Below, piece after piece: positions 3,159-34,376 of a stretch of DNA of 38,281 bases. The stretch lies in the IMG/VR virus record IMGVR_UViG_2737471992_000010, positions 1 to 38,281 of that record. The stretch is one strand, 5' to 3'. Origin of the DNA: a virus (Duplodnaviria > Heunggongvirae > Uroviricota > Caudoviricetes). The position numbers and the translations under genes are program-made. Under the pieces are notes generated by a model. It saw only the letters and a program-made list of their open reading frames with translations. It was not told the origin of the DNA and searched no databases. The stretch's first letter is position 1; the number at the start of each line of letters is the position of its first letter.

Positions 3159-5621
3159 TCAATTCCCTGTTAATTGCAAAACTTGCTCTTCCAGCTTTTT
3201 AACCCTGCGTCTCATCATCGCAGATTCCAGAATCAGAGCCTCTTCATAACGGATACCGTAACATTCACCAGCCTCGACGGCTTCGCGTACCAGAACCTTT
3301 GTCTGTATAAGTGGGTAAACTCCTGCAGAATGCTCTTCTTCCGTCACATCCCTGTATTCTGCCGGGGTCTCATTCCACTTGTCATAACAGATAAATGCCA
3401 GTCGTGACACATCTATGCCTTCATTCTGAAATACACTGATAACATGCTGCGCAACTGCACCAAAGTGCCATCTTGCTCCGTCTTTACCTTTCACTTCGAT
3501 CCTGTCAAGGTACTGGTATGAAACCCATTCCACTCTTTCCCATGCGTCCAGTATTTTCTCATCAATAACCTCTGGAGCAGTCTTGAAACGCGCATCGGAC
3601 AGCACCGTAAACGCTGACTGGGTAAATCCCCCCGACCATGCACGACCAGCCAACCCAAGAGAATAAGTATTCGTTGTCGATGGTGTCATGGCTGAATCAG
3701 AAAACTGTATATATTCTGAATTTCCAGTAGATATTCGAATATTTCCATTTATTAGCGACATAGTGCCTTTAGTATTATCACTATTGAATAATTTCAATTG
3801 CGAACTTATACCGCCTCCCACAGCCAGAGATACATCGCCTTCAGCAAGCATTCTGAATTTATCTGCAGAAACAAGCGTCTGGTTAGCAAGGTTAAAATAT
3901 TTAACCCACCATTCAAAACGCCCTGACATAGTCCCAACGTACTGACCAAGCGCAGGGACGTGAACAACATTGCTATTTGTAGTGCCGTCTATACTGGAAA
4001 TACCAGTCACCGCTGATGCAGAACTCAGAATATTATTTCTGTCACCCGGATGTTTAATTTCAACAAAGTTCCTGATACACCCTTCCTCGAAGGTAACCAC
4101 GCCGGAAGAACTATACATGGGGAATATTGACGCATAATTACTGCGTGCAGCATCTAAGAAACGAATGGTTGTAGATGTCTGCAGATCTCCTGATTCATTT
4201 TTCCCATCACACCCAGTCATTAGAATATTACTGGCAATATTATTATTTCCCTGAACGGTGACTCCGTGCGCCTGCTTTGCGTCCGATTCAGAGTAATCAA
4301 CCAGCACATTCGAAATCAGGTTACCAGTCCCCTTGCCAACAACTACTGCGGCGTATTTTGGGTTGTTAGCCATTACACTGCTAATGATATTATTCGTTGG
4401 GGCAGTTTCCGTCTCAGTTCCATTGTAAACAACGTGCTGACACTCTTCACCAATAACATTGCTGACAATGTTATATTTTGCTGCTGTTTTAAGTTCCACT
4501 GCACCAAACTGAGGATAATTTCTGGCTATCACACCATCAATTAGCGTATTTTGCGATGAATCAAAAAGCACACAACCTGCTTTTTTATTATTTGCGAACC
4601 CTAAATACTCTCCTCTTATATCTCTAACAATGTAACCTGACGGAATACCATTATTCGGATAAGCGATCAAGCTAAATCCTGTTCCTCGCGTATTTGTAAA
4701 TCTGATATTTTTAACCGATACATCATGGCCACCTGAAAATGACACCTGGTGTCCCTGCACACTATCATCTGATTTATTTCCCATAATTGTTAGCGTACTA
4801 AGCATGCCACCATCGGGCATGTTAAAAACCAGATGATTACCATCTCTGTCATACTGTTTTATCGTTCCCCCACCTGTTCCGTACAAGCCACAACGTGAAA
4901 GAGAAACTAAAGATGTATTGAATACCCCTTCCGGAACAAAAACACTGCTAAACGAATGTAATGATTTTGTAAAAGCATCCTTGTTATCATTTAAGATTCC
5001 ATTTTGAGCTCCAAAATCCTTAATGCTGACACCATCACGCATCTTATCCTGGAACGTTCTGTATACCGCTCCAGAACCATACTGAATAAACCAACCAAAA
5101 CCACCAATAACTCCGGCGATTGCAGCATCGACATAATTACGCATTGAGCGATTATTTACAGCGTCCTGCTCAAGTGATGGATCGGCAAGGTTAGATATTC
5201 TGTTTTGCTTTGCATCGTAATATTTTGCAAGCAAAGATGGTTTCATCAATGCACGTCTGAACCACCCAAAACATCGCTGGATCAGCATCGTCAGGTAGTC
5301 AAATGCATCCTCATGAACTTCGGGGAAAAATTTTCCCTGATTGCGAAGATCAGTCTCCTGCACCACATCAAGCACACGCTCTATCGTGATTCGCCAGCCA
5401 GCAGCAAGCGGCGACGGAAGAACCACTGCACCGCCACTATAAGTTCCCGCCCCTGTTACCGTATAACCAGCATCCAGCACTAGTTTTGTAACGTTACCGT
5501 TAAGGTCAGACACCTGAACAACCAGGTCGGATTTTTTGAAAATACGGAAGGTATACGGAAATGATGTCGTAACGCCGTTACCTGTGTATTCGTTGTGGTC
5601 AACTTCGGTTGAGACCGTCAT
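3159..5621 (-). CDS. Tail fiber/tailspike: T7 gp17-like N-terminal adaptor, beta-helix (depolymerase-like) body, C-terminal self-cleaving intramolecular chaperone (peptidase S74-like)
   Basis: 820 aa; N-terminus EYTGNGVTTSFPYTFRIF...LVVQV resembles the T7 tail fibre N-terminal domain; central Gly/Asn/Ser-rich repeats typical of right-handed beta-helix; C-terminal segment with SDARFK motif and coiled-coil tail characteristic of the endosialidase-type chaperone domain. Confidence 0.85.
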   Translation of the reverse strand: MTVSTEVDHNEYTGNGVTTSFPYTFRIFKKSDLVVQVSDLNGNVTKLVLDAGYTVTGAGTYSGGAVVLPSPLAAGWRITIERVLDVVQETDLRNQGKFFPEVHEDAFDYLTMLIQRCFGWFRRALMKPSLLAKYYDAKQNRISNLADPSLEQDAVNNRSMRNYVDAAIAGVIGGFGWFIQYGSGAVYRTFQDKMRDGVSIKDFGAQNGILNDNKDAFTKSLHSFSSVFVPEGVFNTSLVSLSRCGLYGTGGGTIKQYDRDGNHLVFNMPDGGMLSTLTIMGNKSDDSVQGHQVSFSGGHDVSVKNIRFTNTRGTGFSLIAYPNNGIPSGYIVRDIRGEYLGFANNKKAGCVLFDSSQNTLIDGVIARNYPQFGAVELKTAAKYNIVSNVIGEECQHVVYNGTETETAPTNNIISSVMANNPKYAAVVVGKGTGNLISNVLVDYSESDAKQAHGVTVQGNNNIASNILMTGCDGKNESGDLQTSTTIRFLDAARSNYASIFPMYSSSGVVTFEEGCIRNFVEIKHPGDRNNILSSASAVTGISSIDGTTNSNVVHVPALGQYVGTMSGRFEWWVKYFNLANQTLVSADKFRMLAEGDVSLAVGGGISSQLKLFNSDNTKGTMSLINGNIRISTGNSEYIQFSDSAMTPSTTNTYSLGLAGRAWSGGFTQSAFTVLSDARFKTAPEVIDEKILDAWERVEWVSYQYLDRIEVKGKDGARWHFGAVAQHVISVFQNEGIDVSRLAFICYDKWNETPAEYRDVTEEEHSAGVYPLIQTKVLVREAVEAGECYGIRYEEALILESAMMRRRVKKLEEQVLQLTGN

Positions 5622-5724
5622 GTTAAATCTCCAGATAGTCGCAGCACCCGTTGCGCCGCATATCTGGTTATTCTATTACCTGAAAAACCATATATGGATA
5701 AAAAGACTATAAATACCAATAGAT

Positions 5725-5741
5725 ATTACCTTTCGGGTAAT
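5725..5741. promoter_or_regulatory. 17-bp palindromic operator-like site ATTACC-TTTCG-GGTAAT
   Basis: Perfect inverted repeat in the divergent region between the tail fiber start (5621) and the small antirepressor-like gene (5817). Confidence 0.6.
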
Positions 5742-5779
5742 TTGCAAAACGTGCTGGATAGCAAACAAATTATTTGTTA

Positions 5780-5795
5780 CTGTATAAACATACAG
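5780..5795. promoter_or_regulatory. LexA (SOS) box CTGT-N8-ACAG
   Basis: Sequence tacTGTATAAACATACAGtt: perfect CTGT / ACAG half-sites with an AT-rich 8-nt spacer, 22 nt upstream of the ATG at 5817 and overlapping a TATAAA -10-like hexamer. Confidence 0.65.
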
Positions 5796-5816
5796 TTATT
5801 GCATGGAGAAGATAAG

Positions 5817-6074
5817 ATGCAGCAGTATCACTATCCACTGGAAGACGGATTTACCGAAAGGATTCACACGCCGGGAGGCGTCAGGTCACTGGTGGAGGGA
5901 TCGCACTTGATGAAATTACTCCGGGATCTCGATAAGGATGGATTTAATGTCGATGGCCCACTTGCCGAACTGACTGCACTGATTAACTACGTCACCAGCT
6001 CACAGATGTCTATGCGGGATCTGCAAACACATCTCGACTATTGTGCCGAACAATTACGAAAACAAACCAGATAA
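5817..6074 (+). CDS. Small protein paralogous to the C-terminal domain of the antirepressor (candidate LexA-controlled antirepressor)
   Basis: 85 aa from the internal ATG with GGAGAA RBS; aligns with residues about 140-218 of the 6392..7048 product (PLEDGF.ERIHTPGGV..L.EGSHLM.LL..L...G..V.G..AELT....Y). The track ORF from 5694 is an upstream extension without RBS. Confidence 0.6.
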   Translation: MQQYHYPLEDGFTERIHTPGGVRSLVEGSHLMKLLRDLDKDGFNVDGPLAELTALINYVTSSQMSMRDLQTHLDYCAEQLRKQTR

Positions 6075-6104: not shown

Positions 6105-6121
6105 TTTACCTTTGCGGTAAA
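6105..6121. promoter_or_regulatory. 17-bp palindromic operator-like site TTTACC-TTTGC-GGTAAA
   Basis: Perfect inverted repeat, itself nested inside a longer inverted repeat GGAGTGC (6093-6099) / GCACTCC (6130-6136). Confidence 0.55.
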
Positions 6122-6211
6122 TTTACATCGCACTCCTCTTGTGCCATAGTAATCGGGCACTGGCAAAATCCAGTGCCGGGATTGGTCTCCCGGATTACTA
6201 AGTGGCGCATA

Positions 6212-6233
6212 CCACGCCAGACGTGGTTTTTTT
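6212..6233 (+). terminator. Weak terminator-like hairpin plus U-tract
   Basis: CCACG-CCAGA-CGTGG followed by seven T; lies downstream of GC-rich hairpins at 6156-6193. Confidence 0.35.
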
Positions 6234-6391
6234 ATGCGTATAGCACAGTCATGCCAGAATTATGGTGGGCTGAATGGGGGTCCGAAAGGACGCCGGTACC
6301 ACTTAGGCCGGTAAGACCAACTCCGTTCAGTTCACCACCATCTGATTGGTCTCAGCGGTGGTGATGTAATTCGCTAAGTGGAGACGCCATC

Positions 6392-7048
6392 ATGAACGCT
6401 CAACTCATCCCCGTATTCAACGGCACTATATCTAACGAAACAGCCCTACTTTGTAATGCCCGCGATCTGCACGCTTTTTTAGGTGTTAAAAAGGTGTTTG
6501 CAGCATGGATTACAAATCGCATATCAGAATACGAATTCATTGAAAATCAAGACTATATTTTGCTTTCCAATTTGGGAAAGCAAACATCTGGTAGAGGCGG
6601 CCACAACCGCAAAGAGTACCACCTCACCCTTGATACAGCCAAAGAGCTGGCGATGGTCGAGCGTAACGAAAAAGGTCGTCAGGTGCGACGCTACTTCATT
6701 GAATGCGAGAAACGTTTAAGACAACAAGAAACAAAAGTGGAGAAGGTCTTGTCAGGCTTCATGCCCGCCATTATGGAGGCGATCAAGCTGGAAGACAAAA
6801 AAGAATACAGCGCCCCACTGAAGCCCGGCTACCGCAGCCTGATTCATTCTCCGTCTGGTGTTCTCGGCCTGACGGAGAACTCACTGCTGATGAATCTGCT
6901 GAACAAGTTACAGGAAGACGGGCACGATGTATCGGGCGCGGCAGCGGAGCTGACCACCATGTTCTGCTACATCGTCGGTGTGAGCAAATGCCTGCGTGAT
7001 ATCCAGACCCACGCGGAGTACATCAACGACAAGGCAGGGTTCTTCTGA
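6392..7048 (+). CDS. Antirepressor (AntA-type N-terminal domain plus C-terminal domain)
   Basis: 218 aa; N-terminal region (VFNGT...[29 protein letters not shown]) resembles AntA/AntB antirepressor domains; GGAG RBS 10 nt upstream. Confidence 0.75.
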
Positions 7049-7119
7049 CGGGCGGTGGCACAGGGATGTGCCTTTAAATAATTCTGTACAGATTGCAGAC
7101 TGTGGGTGAATAGCGTACT

Positions 7120-7136
7120 ATTACCTTAAAGGTAAA
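7120..7136. promoter_or_regulatory. 17-bp palindromic operator-like site ATTACC-TTAAA-GGTAAA abutting the RBS of the 7148 gene
   Basis: Inverted repeat whose right edge overlaps the AGGAGG RBS (7136-7141) of the ORF starting at 7148. Confidence 0.55.
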
Positions 7137-7147
7137 GGAGGCGCGAT

Positions 7148-7312
7148 ATGACAGCGTTGAAAAATCGTACTCAGCACAATGAACAAGCAAAGCAATGCTG
7201 GGATGTCATTGGAAAAGTTATGCTTGGCCGCGCAAGCAAAGAGCGCGACAAGGATATGGTTTACCAGACAGGAACATCTTTCAGCGACTTCAAGGCGGCA
7301 TTTCGCTCCAAA
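7148..7312 (+). CDS. Small basic protein (55 aa), unknown function; not in the supplied ORF track
   Basis: ATG at 7148 preceded by AGGAGG at 6-nt spacing; translation MTALKNRTQHNEQAKQCWDVIGKVMLGRASKERDKDMVYQTGTSFSDFKAAFRSK; stop TAG at 7310-7312. Confidence 0.45.
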
Positions 7313-7335
7313 TAGAAGCACATCAGGAGTTTTCC

Positions 7336-7776
7336 TTGAAGTTTAACATTAGAATATCTAATAGTTTTCTACATGGGGAAAGCAACACCCCTTTCGCTGT
7401 AGACGGACCTTTCCTTACTGATGATGAAATAAAAATCATACAAAGTTTTTTAGAGGATGTTGCCAATGGAAGGGCGCTTGTTGGAAAAAACAAGCCCTCG
7501 TGGGTTGATGATAACCATGATAAAATTCCCGGCTCAGACAATTATGAGCAAGAGAATTATTGGCATTATCATTGTGGGCCAACATGGTATCCAAACACAT
7601 TTAAGAATTATACCATTAACTTAAATTTCAACCCTGGCGGAAGGCATTCTAATGAATGCATTCATTATGCAAAAAATGATAATGAAATTGTCATTGTTGG
7701 ATTTTCAAGAGAACACATACCTTTCCTTTCATCAGATGGAAACAACAATCCGCTTTTTAATGATGAAGAAGAATAG
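7336..7776 (+). CDS. AT-rich accessory gene of unknown function, about 146 aa, probable TTG start
   Basis: Long ORF with visibly lower GC than its surroundings; no in-frame ATG after 7195; AGGAG RBS (7325-7329) 6 nt before TTG 7336; acidic C-terminus NDEEE; followed by a strong terminator. Confidence 0.5.
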   Translation: MKFNIRISNSFLHGESNTPFAVDGPFLTDDEIKIIQSFLEDVANGRALVGKNKPSWVDDNHDKIPGSDNYEQENYWHYHCGPTWYPNTFKNYTINLNFNPGGRHSNECIHYAKNDNEIVIVGFSREHIPFLSSDGNNNPLFNDEEE

Positions 7777-7796
7777 CCCGCGCTGCGGGCTTTTTT
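7776..7796 (+). terminator. Rho-independent terminator
   Basis: GCCCGC-GCT-GCGGGC stem-loop immediately followed by TTTTTT. Confidence 0.65.
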
Positions 7797-7868
7797 GTGG
7801 ACGAAACAAAAGTCAGTGCTACACTCATTGACGCCACATTGAGGTGGCTTATAGATGGAAATTTCACA

Positions 7869-8030
7869 ATGAAAAAAGCATTTGCTGCACTGTTCGTTTT
7901 GTTGTCTCTGGTAGCTTCAACTCAGGCCTTTGCCGGTCGTTGTCAGCACGACAGCGACACTGCCGCTGACGGCTCCCGCTGCGGTGGGCGTTCTGCGGAT
8001 TCCCGCCCGGGCGGCGGTGGCATTCGTTAA
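7869..8030 (+). CDS. Small secreted Gly/Arg-rich protein (53 aa)
   Basis: Internal ATG gives MKKAFAALFVLLSLVASTQAFA signal peptide then a short mature peptide; weak RBS, so the call is tentative. Confidence 0.35.
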   Translation: MKKAFAALFVLLSLVASTQAFAGRCQHDSDTAADGSRCGGRSADSRPGGGGIR

Positions 8031-24304: not shown

Positions 24305-24321
24305 ATTACCTTTCAGGTAAC
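24305..24321. promoter_or_regulatory. 17-bp palindromic operator-like site ATTACC-TTTCA-GGTAAC next to a consensus -35
   Basis: Inverted repeat with TTGACA at 24284-24289 just upstream; lies between the divergent virion operon (minus) and the tRNA/accessory unit (plus). Confidence 0.55.
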
Positions 24322-24642: not shown

Positions 24643-24719
24643 GTGGCATTAGCTCAGTTGGACAGAGCAACCGCCTTCTAAGCGGTTGGTCGCAGGTTCG
24701 AATCCTGCATGCCACGCCA
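24643..24719 (+). tRNA. tRNA-Arg, anticodon UCU (reads AGA)
   Basis: Hand-folded cloverleaf: 7-bp acceptor stem GTGGCAT/ATGCCAC, D arm GCTC...GAGC, anticodon stem ACCGC/GCGGT with loop CTTCTAA, T arm GCAGG-TTCGAAT-CCTGC, discriminator G and encoded CCA. Confidence 0.9.
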
Positions 24720-33335: not shown

Positions 33336-33352
33336 ATTACCTTTGAGGTACG
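33336..33352. promoter_or_regulatory. Imperfect 17-bp palindromic site ATTACC-TTTGA-GGTACG
   Basis: Left half-site perfect, right half-site with two mismatches; between the Cro-like stop and the zinc-finger gene. Confidence 0.35.
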
Positions 33353-33791: not shown

Positions 33792-34376
33792 ATGAAAAGT
33801 ATCCAGGACGTCCGCAGGCAAAATCTCAACGACTTGATCGACCGTGAATTCAATGGTGTTCAGACGCGGATGGCTGAAAAACTTGGAACTCAGGCAAATC
33901 TGGTAAACCGCTGGGCTCTTGGCAAGAAGGTTATCGGCGACCAGGTTGCGCGAAAAATTGAAGCTGCCGCCAATAAACCCCGTAACTGGCTTGATATCGA
34001 TCGCTCGCTTTCTCAGGAAGGTTTTCAGCCTGTCGGACCAAGCGACATTGGTCAACTGGCGGCTCACAACCTGGAACGCTGGATGAGCGAAAGCCGCGAC
34101 CTTTCAACGCAGGGAAAACTTCACCGCGCATCCGGCGTCGCCCAGGTAACAATCAGCCGCCTGTTAAACAATGAGGTCAGCGTTTCCATTTCCACCCTGG
34201 AGAATGTTGCATCCGCATTTGGGCGTCACGGATATGAATTACTGATTCACCCGCACGACCCCGCGACTATCAACTATGACCGCTCGCGCTACGCATTGTT
34301 ACCTGAAACAGAGAAGGCAAAGATCGAAAGTTACATTGAATTTGTCATCAACCAGAACGAAAAAAACAAACAATAA
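33792..34376 (+). CDS. Prophage repressor with two HTH (XRE-type) domains and no peptidase S24 domain
   Basis: 194 aa; two HTH-like segments (QTRMAEKLGTQANLVNRWALGKK and HRASGVAQVTISRLLNNEVS); no Ala-Gly/Ser-Lys autocleavage module; sits between OR-like and OL-like operator clusters. Confidence 0.65.
   Translation: MKSIQDVRRQNLNDLIDREFNGVQTRMAEKLGTQANLVNRWALGKKVIGDQVARKIEAAANKPRNWLDIDRSLSQEGFQPVGPSDIGQLAAHNLERWMSESRDLSTQGKLHRASGVAQVTISRLLNNEVSVSISTLENVASAFGRHGYELLIHPHDPATINYDRSRYALLPETEKAKIESYIEFVINQNEKNKQ

Follow-up and report, generated by a model that had tools for sequence, protein, structure and literature searches.

What kind of system is encoded by the two small genes that lie between the antirepressor gene ant and the virion genes of IMGVR_UViG_2737471992_000010, a viral record of IMG/VR? 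The 38,281 nucleotides (nt) of this record, which were analysed as a single stretch and are referred to here as the window, represent a Uetakevirus-type (epsilon15 / phiV10 / TL-2011b-like) Escherichia coli prophage, and positions 7050-7850, which contain both genes, are 99.9% identical to phage phiv142-3 (MN187550, genus Uetakevirus). A first-pass annotation had pictured the pair, a gene for a basic protein of 55 amino acids (aa) followed by one for an acidic protein of about 146 aa, as a self-contained accessory cassette under its own operator, and had offered toxin-antitoxin, abortive infection or anti-defence functions for it. We propose, with moderate confidence, that the cassette is a type II toxin-antitoxin-like module of an unnamed family, carried as exchangeable cargo in a repressor-controlled slot of Uetakevirus-type prophages. 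Among the three functions offered, toxin-antitoxin is the best fit, given the predicted fold of the larger protein, the obligatory pairing of the two genes, the relatives that are paired with Panacea antitoxins and the YafO-like genes that serve as alternative cargo.

The two proteins and their predicted fold

Comparison with homologues, which range from 37 to 99% in identity, indicates that both open reading frames (ORFs) are real genes. The 55-aa protein matches PHROG 8607 (E 4e-39) and the 146-aa protein PHROG 5954 (E 7e-74), in each case end to end, the PHROG matches of both proteins being to families of unknown function only. Against a 75%-identical copy, the large gene shows 49 synonymous and 37 non-synonymous codon differences and the small gene 13 and 9, respectively. 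The two genes are co-oriented and separated by a 20-nt gap that holds the ribosome-binding site of the second. The TTG start codon of the large gene is conserved in enterobacterial copies, with GTG in Erwinia, and other clades use ATG; the conserved weak TTG start fits an excess of antitoxin. The AGGAGG ribosome-binding site and the large gene were found where the first-pass annotation had placed them; the small ORF, given there as 7148..7312, is present but runs to 7315. The shift in base composition described in the same annotation was borne out by a windowed calculation: the 146-aa gene has 35.6% G+C compared with 49.1% for the whole window, and none of the other 441-bp windows across the 38 kb (mean 49.2, standard deviation 3.8) falls as low.

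Neither protein can be assigned to a named sequence family by profile searches, in agreement with the earlier view. Pfam, NCBIfam and PADLOC models give no match to the 146-aa protein, the same three collections reveal no known domain in the 55-aa protein, and a profile search of PDB sequences returned nothing relevant. An exhaustive profile search gathered 118 cluster representatives related to the 146-aa protein (E <= 0.001), and scanning remote relatives against Pfam (20 sequences) and NCBIfam (10 sequences) yielded no family name. Structure prediction, which the first-pass annotation had put forward as a check, gives the 146-aa protein a predicted RelE/ParE-type fold in an AlphaFold2 model built with 29 homologues (predicted local distance difference test, pLDDT, 91.9; predicted template modelling score, pTM, 0.87). 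A Foldseek search of PDB with this model was non-significant, though RelE/ParE-type families still ranked first, and the viral fold library BFVD held no meaningful match.

The signature motifs of the 146-aa protein are GKNKPSW (50-56), WHYHCG (76-81), IHY (109-111) and SxxHxPF (124-130). In an alignment of 36 representatives sharing 22-54% identity, H77, H79 and H127 are the sole invariant positions, and G50, N52, K53, Y78, H110, Y111 and F130 are more than 90% conserved; in the model the conserved residues lie on or beside predicted strands 75-79, 108-113 and 117-124. This pattern of conservation points to an enzyme which, by analogy with YafQ, YoeB and RelE, is most likely an endoribonuclease.

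The cassette shares with RelBE, DinJ-YafQ, YefM-YoeB, HigBA and ParDE the layout of a two-gene operon with a small neutraliser gene first and a short gap, and with RelE/ParE systems at large their carriage on mobile elements. The histidine-dependent YafQ and YoeB likewise have conserved histidines and lysines on the strands, and a corresponding active site may be mapped onto the predicted strands of the 146-aa protein. In contrast to these systems, the large protein is about 55 residues longer, owing to insertions, and acidic rather than basic; its isoelectric point (pI) of 4.9 sets it apart from the ribosome-dependent RNase subgroup, which is characterised by a basic surface. The cassette proteins also differ in having no sequence-level match to any of the RelE/ParE models, the partner has no ribbon-helix-helix (RHH), helix-turn-helix (HTH) or Phd-type DNA-binding domain, and transcription is apparently governed by a phage operator instead of by the antitoxin.

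A likeness is also seen to YafO (PF13957), with which the protein shares the order of its motifs: HxH, then xHxxY or IHY, then a hydrophobic strand and H. The HxH, xxY and H motifs stand in the same register when the family is aligned with YafO in hhalign. Membership of the YafO family was considered and rejected, as PF13957 (gathering score 25 bits) does not hit the 146-aa protein, BLASTP against the YafO-like protein of TL-2011b is not significant and neither is the hhalign comparison; the 55-aa partner, moreover, is unrelated to YafN. An AlphaFold2 model of YafO itself (pLDDT 49) was too poor and was not used for comparison.

Pairing and mobility of the module

Related loci, 95 in all, were collected from genomes and viral contigs of Enterobacterales, Pasteurellaceae, Aeromonas and Neisseriaceae. 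In nearly all of them an abutting, co-oriented partner gene lies directly upstream of the large gene, with a spacing that runs from a 29-nt overlap to a 31-nt gap; the Aeromonas locus also carries its upstream partner. By this measure the small protein is an obligatory partner of the large one. The partners vary in length, from 55-65 aa in enterics to 69 aa in one clade, 99-121 aa in another and about 200 aa in Neisseriaceae. A C-terminal element is common to all of them, even where the N-terminal part differs, and in it a conserved aromatic residue and an invariant arginine are accompanied by a short run of hydrophobic residues and a motif resembling G-x-[ST]-x-[DE]-[DE]-[FIL]-x-x-A. In the 55-aa protein these features are represented by a conserved W18, the invariant R28 and the C-terminal element ...DMVYQTGTSFSDFKAAF, and the C-terminal part of a 121-aa partner matches PHROG 8607, the family of the 55-aa protein itself. 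A long helical region precedes the conserved C-terminal element in the Pasteurellaceae partners (locus L011 and other Haemophilus loci, 3438-3995).

The two genes stay together although their surroundings change, the module being found in several unrelated contexts, to judge from neighbouring genes whose identities at the related loci were read from translations rather than from library matches. The pair is found beside ant in Uetakevirus and, elsewhere, close to a NinG-like gene. Prophage tail operons of two kinds carry it behind a tape-measure-like gene, one being lambda-like and the other that of Haemophilus prophages, where a gpV-like baseplate gene comes after the pair. A non-phage context is provided by Neisseriaceae, where the pair, whose partner protein is about 200 aa long there, seems to interrupt the NADH dehydrogenase (nuo) operon between nuoK-like and nuoL-like genes (a Kingella metagenome-assembled genome (MAG), locus L018, 3366-4519, and a Neisseria MAG, locus L019); one distant relative of the large gene adjoins a relaxase-like gene. 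Members of the family are also present in Haemophilus, Actinobacillus, Klebsiella, Serratia, Pectobacterium, Erwinia, Aeromonas and Kingella/Neisseria. This mobility across several types of element upholds the view of the first-pass annotation that the two genes form a horizontally acquired accessory module.

Distant members of the family connect it to Panacea antitoxins, which neutralise dozens of unrelated toxins, often via attached elements (PMC8832971, PMC10440598). Three short-type relatives from metagenomes are each encoded immediately after a SocA_Panacea (PF13274) protein (E 1e-20 to 1e-22); their loci were found with a single-sequence query, an alignment of the short-type relatives having no conserved stretch. 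The 146-aa protein aligns with one Panacea-linked relative over 130 aa (BLASTP E 2e-5), and for another relative, whose partner is a free-standing protein of 85 aa, homology links this partner to the C-terminal tail of these Panacea proteins (E 3e-10). The arrangement resembles PanA-PanT systems (Panacea/DUF4065; Kurata et al. 2022, Ernits et al. 2023) in that distant homologues of the 146-aa protein stand directly behind Panacea proteins and that, in this clade, an element of roughly 40 aa is found in two forms, as the C-terminal tail of the Panacea protein and as a small partner on its own, which matches the 'attached neutralising element' model (PMC8832971, PMC10440598). It differs in that the 55-aa partner of the cassette has no Panacea domain, its likeness to the tails being a shared pattern only.

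The cargo slot, its operator and the published orf10

The cassette occupies a slot between ant and a gene for a small secreted protein, in which at least five types of cargo are found (loci L001, L099, L100 and L101). Comparison of the window with TL-2011b and three E. coli prophages shows that the flanks of the slot are constant, comprising the hairpin that follows ant, a TTGCAG-17-TACTAT promoter, a palindrome and a terminator; exchange is confined to about 7137-7770, with cargo-specific sequence beginning at 7137. The other cargoes are a 59-aa gene with a 181-aa YafO-like gene, a 108-aa gene with a 170-aa YafO-like gene, a single 210-aa protein and a single DUF4760 protein. A small gene followed by a YafO-family toxin gene takes the identical site in TL-2011b and many E. 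coli prophages, the TL-2011b protein scoring 26.3 bits against PF13957. No PADLOC v2 model matches either cassette protein or the other slot cargoes. Among 5,426 complete E. coli genomes the slot was found in 477 and the cargo described here in 77 (about 1.4%); this cargo is always chromosomal, and its two products are always entered as hypothetical proteins.

Four of the five slot variants keep the promoter, which in the DUF4760 variant has a 7-bp spacer deletion; the palindrome is kept, with a varied centre, in slots with other cargo; and the terminator is conserved across the variants, being degenerate in the second YafO-like one. The DUF4760 variant (L100, E. coli PKF11) also has a long extra leader with its own hairpin, and with the spacer deletion this suggests that its expression may be driven differently. 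The strong closing terminator of the first-pass annotation was recovered, and the palindrome is present at slightly narrower limits (7121-7135 in place of 7120-7136). The notion of a self-contained unit did not survive, since promoter, palindrome and terminator are constant parts of the slot that are kept around four other cargoes. The same facts qualify the likeness to phage morons and hotspots. As in these, a discrete unit of deviant G+C lies between a promoter and a terminator and is replaced by other cargo in related prophages; unlike in morons, the cargo itself includes no promoter, operator or terminator, all three being parts of the slot, and the promoter carries what looks like the phage's own operator, whereas morons are usually defined as being expressed independently of the lysogeny regulator (definition quoted in PMC9928086).

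The promoter assignment itself is an inference from the sequence: 8 of 12 consensus positions are present, one fewer than the scan tool requires, and the tool therefore did not list the element. The palindrome overlaps its -10 hexamer and the expected transcription start, and the same layout, a -10 hexamer followed by the operator, recurs at other TTACC-N5-GGTAA sites. Allowing one mismatch, the window holds 14 such sites, 10 of them exact, compared with 0.48 expected. They cluster on both sides of a gene for a 194-aa HTH_3 repressor-like protein (33792-34376) and either adjoin or overlap the -10 hexamers of promoter-like sequences, among which are the one ahead of ant and two with a perfect TTGACA. 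The palindrome that had been taken for the operator of the cassette is, on this pattern, one copy of a phage-wide operator, and the set looks like the main repressor regulon of the phage, taking in ant and the cargo slot; the HTH_3 protein would be a candidate for binding it. A private operator for the small protein of the cassette was rejected, as the palindrome flanks four unrelated cargoes and has 14 copies in the phage.

With the phage operator in its promoter, the cassette is expected to be expressed at a low level in a quiet lysogen and to rise on infection, induction or partial derepression; we infer that repression covers the cassette along with ant and the early operons, and that infection or derepression switches it on. 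Published transcript data for phiv142-3 in chicken serum fit this reading. The strongest inductions there were of orf41 (2^4.56), 'orf10' (2^4.12), which lies within the cassette, and orf40 (2^3.68), with ant induced only modestly (2^1.31); the 'orf10' transcript was detectable in lysogeny broth (LB) and 17-fold higher in serum (PMC7724020). In the window, orf41 and orf40 are the genes that come first on the downstream side of the operator site at 33337. The transcriptome of the LF82 phage 'Gally' was set aside as a source of expression data, Gally being a P22-like and different phage.

The serum data raise the question of what 'orf10' is. GenBank Orf10 of phiv142-3 (QGF19616.1) corresponds to a 52-aa ORF at 7466-7624 (+) of the window, inside the 146-aa gene and in another frame. 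The orf10 frame contains internal stops in several of the homologues checked, including copies of 75-80% identity, while the 146-aa frame stays open across 37 to 99% identity with many synonymous changes. Comparative sequence evidence thus identifies 'orf10' as an out-of-frame miscall within the 146-aa gene, made probably because the true gene has a TTG start. The recombineering arms used by Li et al. (2020) correspond to positions 7406-7465 and 7625-7684 of the window, so that in their delta-orf10 mutant the 146-aa gene lacks codons about 44-97 and with them the GKNKPSW and WHYHCG motifs. The mutant grew normally in LB and more slowly in serum, with about 60% serum survival and about two-fold lower kps transcripts, and its loads in blood and heart came to 7-8% of those of the wild type (Li et al. 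2020, PMC7724020). These phenotypes most likely belong to the 146-aa protein, and the viability of the mutant is as expected when a toxin gene is deleted. The claim of an undescribed system holds in that the family is unnamed, and gives way in that its large gene had already been knocked out in 2020, as 'orf10' (PMC7724020). In Canicola haemoglobinophilus (loci L008, L062 and L065, about 3986-4426) the large gene is interrupted by one in-frame stop just ahead of GKNKPSW, beside an intact 211-aa partner gene; this lineage and the growth of the published deletion mutant indicate that loss of the large gene is tolerated.

The features of the region are collected in the table. The hairpin just past ant is likely a weak terminator of the ant transcript. 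Between the operator site at 6106 and the ant start at 6392, Rfam models identify an isrK small RNA (67.7 bits) and a C4 antisense RNA (61.2 bits), which suggests that ant is subject to P1/P7 c4-type control by RNA besides its operator. A 126-aa ORF at 5694-6074 (+) duplicates the C-terminal domain of Ant only (PHROG 450; residues 42-126) and may be a truncated second antirepressor-like gene; an operator copy lies inside the called ORF at 5726, and its real start is probably a Met near 5817. To the right of the cassette, the long minus-strand genes beyond the 98-aa gene are taken to be virion genes. A phage-borne tRNA-Arg gene (anticodon TCT; 24643-24719, +) is intergenic and stands beside the operator copy at 24306.

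Table 1. Features of the cassette, its slot and the surrounding region (positions in the window).
Feature	Position	Strand	Remarks
TTACC-N5-GGTAA sites (15 bp each)	5494, 5726, 6106, 7121, 24306, 27433, 27451, 31329, 31391, 33337, 33674, 33722, 34434, 34496		phage-wide operator set (putative)
isrK small RNA (Rfam)	6157-6233	+	upstream of ant
C4 antisense RNA (Rfam)	6258-6342	+	upstream of ant
Terminator-like hairpin	6211-6227		upstream of ant
ant, AntA-type antirepressor gene	6392-7048		left of cassette; stop codon 7046-7048; Pfam AntA, E 4e-26
Hairpin GGCACAgggaTGTGCC then T/A-rich run	7057..7083	+	just past ant stop; identical in all five slot variants
Putative sigma-70 promoter	7093..7121	+	-35 TTGCAG 7093-7098, 17-nt spacer, -10 TACTAT 7116-7121
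Perfect 15-bp palindrome TTACCTTAAAGGTAA	7121..7135		7-bp arms, one central base
Shine-Dalgarno AGGAGG	7136..7141	+	6 nt ahead of small-gene ATG at 7148
55-aa basic protein gene, putative antitoxin	7148..7315	+	ATG start, pI 9.8
Shine-Dalgarno AGGAG	7325..7329	+	6 nt ahead of large-gene TTG at 7336
146-aa acidic protein gene, putative toxin	7336..7776	+	TTG start, pI 4.9, C-terminus ...NDEEE
Intrinsic terminator AGCCCGCgctGCGGGCT then TTTTT	7775..7796	+	stem-loop 7775-7791, 7 pairs, 6 G-C
Small secreted or membrane protein gene	7863-8030		right of cassette
98-aa membrane protein gene		minus	after the 7863-8030 gene

A model of the module and its alternatives

Our analysis suggests a model for the activity of the cassette as a toxin-antitoxin-like module. 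The sigma-70 promoter, overlapped by the TTACC-N5-GGTAA operator, would drive a two-gene transcript that ends at the slot terminator. The first gene, with its strong ribosome-binding site and ATG start, would yield the basic 55-aa protein, and the second, from its conserved weak TTG, a smaller amount of the acidic 146-aa protein with the RelE/ParE-type fold. The latter would most likely act as an endoribonuclease with an active site formed by H77, H79 and H127, helped by H110, Y111, N52 and K53. We propose that the 146-aa protein is kept inactive by the 55-aa protein, which would bind it by means of the conserved strand-plus-helix element at its own C-terminus; degradation of the partner, or a halt in expression, would free the enzyme and lead to growth arrest or a reshaped transcriptome.

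Several results weigh against this model. Models of RelE, ParE, HigB, YoeB, YafQ and YafO give no match to the 146-aa protein (Pfam at E<=1, NCBIfam at E<=10), and hhalign, run with either of two profiles of the family, gives a probability of 0.5-0.6% for YafO, with E about 0.1. The charges are reversed relative to the classical RelBE pair: the toxin-like protein is acidic (pI 4.9, net charge about -11; family median pI 5.3) and the partner tail basic (median 9.1), which argues against binding to the ribosomal A site in the manner of RelE. The 55-aa partner has no recognisable DNA-binding domain in Pfam or NCBIfam, and since the operator also belongs to the phage, classical autoregulation is not evident. 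Its homology to the Panacea C-terminal tails is unsupported (hhalign E 0.23), and the Pasteurellaceae partners (PHROG 18778), at 160-194 aa, carry an N-terminal hydrophobic segment. Finally, the genes induced in serum did not include that for the 55-aa protein (orf9), despite the 17-fold rise of 'orf10' (PMC7724020).

A more ambitious version of the toxin-antitoxin model, which we put forward only tentatively, takes some of these departures at face value. The 146-aa protein would then be an acidic, ribosome-independent, histidine-triad enzyme founding a new RelE/ParE catalytic class, its neutraliser a minimal element of roughly 40 residues that acts alone or is fused to a long N-terminal region or to Panacea, and the whole a repressor-wired device for host shutoff or superinfection exclusion, not a classical addiction module. 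If true, this would explain the serum-fitness phenotype published under 'orf10'.

The alternative that survives best, though we regard it as unlikely, is that the 146-aa protein acts not as a toxin but as a phage RNase or regulator, tuning phage or host transcripts in lytic growth or on derepression, with the 55-aa protein as its cofactor or specificity subunit. T4 RegB, a phage RNase with a reported RelE-like fold, offers a model for such a protein. Since the operator of the slot also stands at ant and at apparent early promoters, expression is to be expected on derepression, and the transcript did rise in serum together with the first genes downstream of the site at 33337. The fall in kps transcripts and serum fitness on deletion is a regulatory type of phenotype, and the acidic charge is atypical of ribosome-dependent toxins. 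However, a role in phage development makes little sense for pairs that reside outside phages, in a nuo operon or beside a relaxase-like gene, and both the pairing of relatives with Panacea antitoxins and the YafO-like toxin pairs that alternate in the slot speak against a non-toxic regulator.

Somewhat less probable again is a defence or counter-defence module in which the RelE-like fold has been repurposed, as an abortive-infection effector set off by a superinfecting phage or a binder of a host immune protein, with the histidines serving to hold a metal or ligand. ParE-type members of the fold superfamily act on a protein, DNA gyrase, and not on RNA. A polymorphic prophage slot with at least five cargoes behaves like known defence and anti-defence hotspots, and toxin-antitoxin modules overlap widely with defence systems (PMC10440598); against this stands the lack of a PADLOC match for this or any other slot cargo. 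This alternative overlaps with the toxin-antitoxin model more than it excludes it, because an abortive-infection toxin-antitoxin module would fit both. That the published reading is correct, with the 52-aa ORF10 as the functional product that up-regulates K1 capsule genes, is highly improbable: Li et al. (2020) report a delta-orf10 phenotype and its complementation by a plasmid with orf10 and a 'putative promoter region', but the frame is interrupted in homologues in which the 146-aa frame is open, the deletion also takes two signature motifs of the 146-aa gene, and the complementation primers are absent from the paper, so that the insert cannot be reconstructed.

A new assignment is called for in the case of the serum-resistance and kps phenotype described by Li et al. 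(2020), which corrects the identity of a published virulence-associated phage gene. The polymorphic, repressor-controlled slot of Uetakevirus-type prophages is a convenient site at which to find further accessory and defence genes. If the toxin-antitoxin model is true, it names a family that has been without a function in PHROG, Pfam and NCBIfam and gives it a testable mechanism; it would also add a histidine-based, acidic branch to the RelE/ParE toxins and link this branch to the partner-swapping network of Panacea antitoxins.

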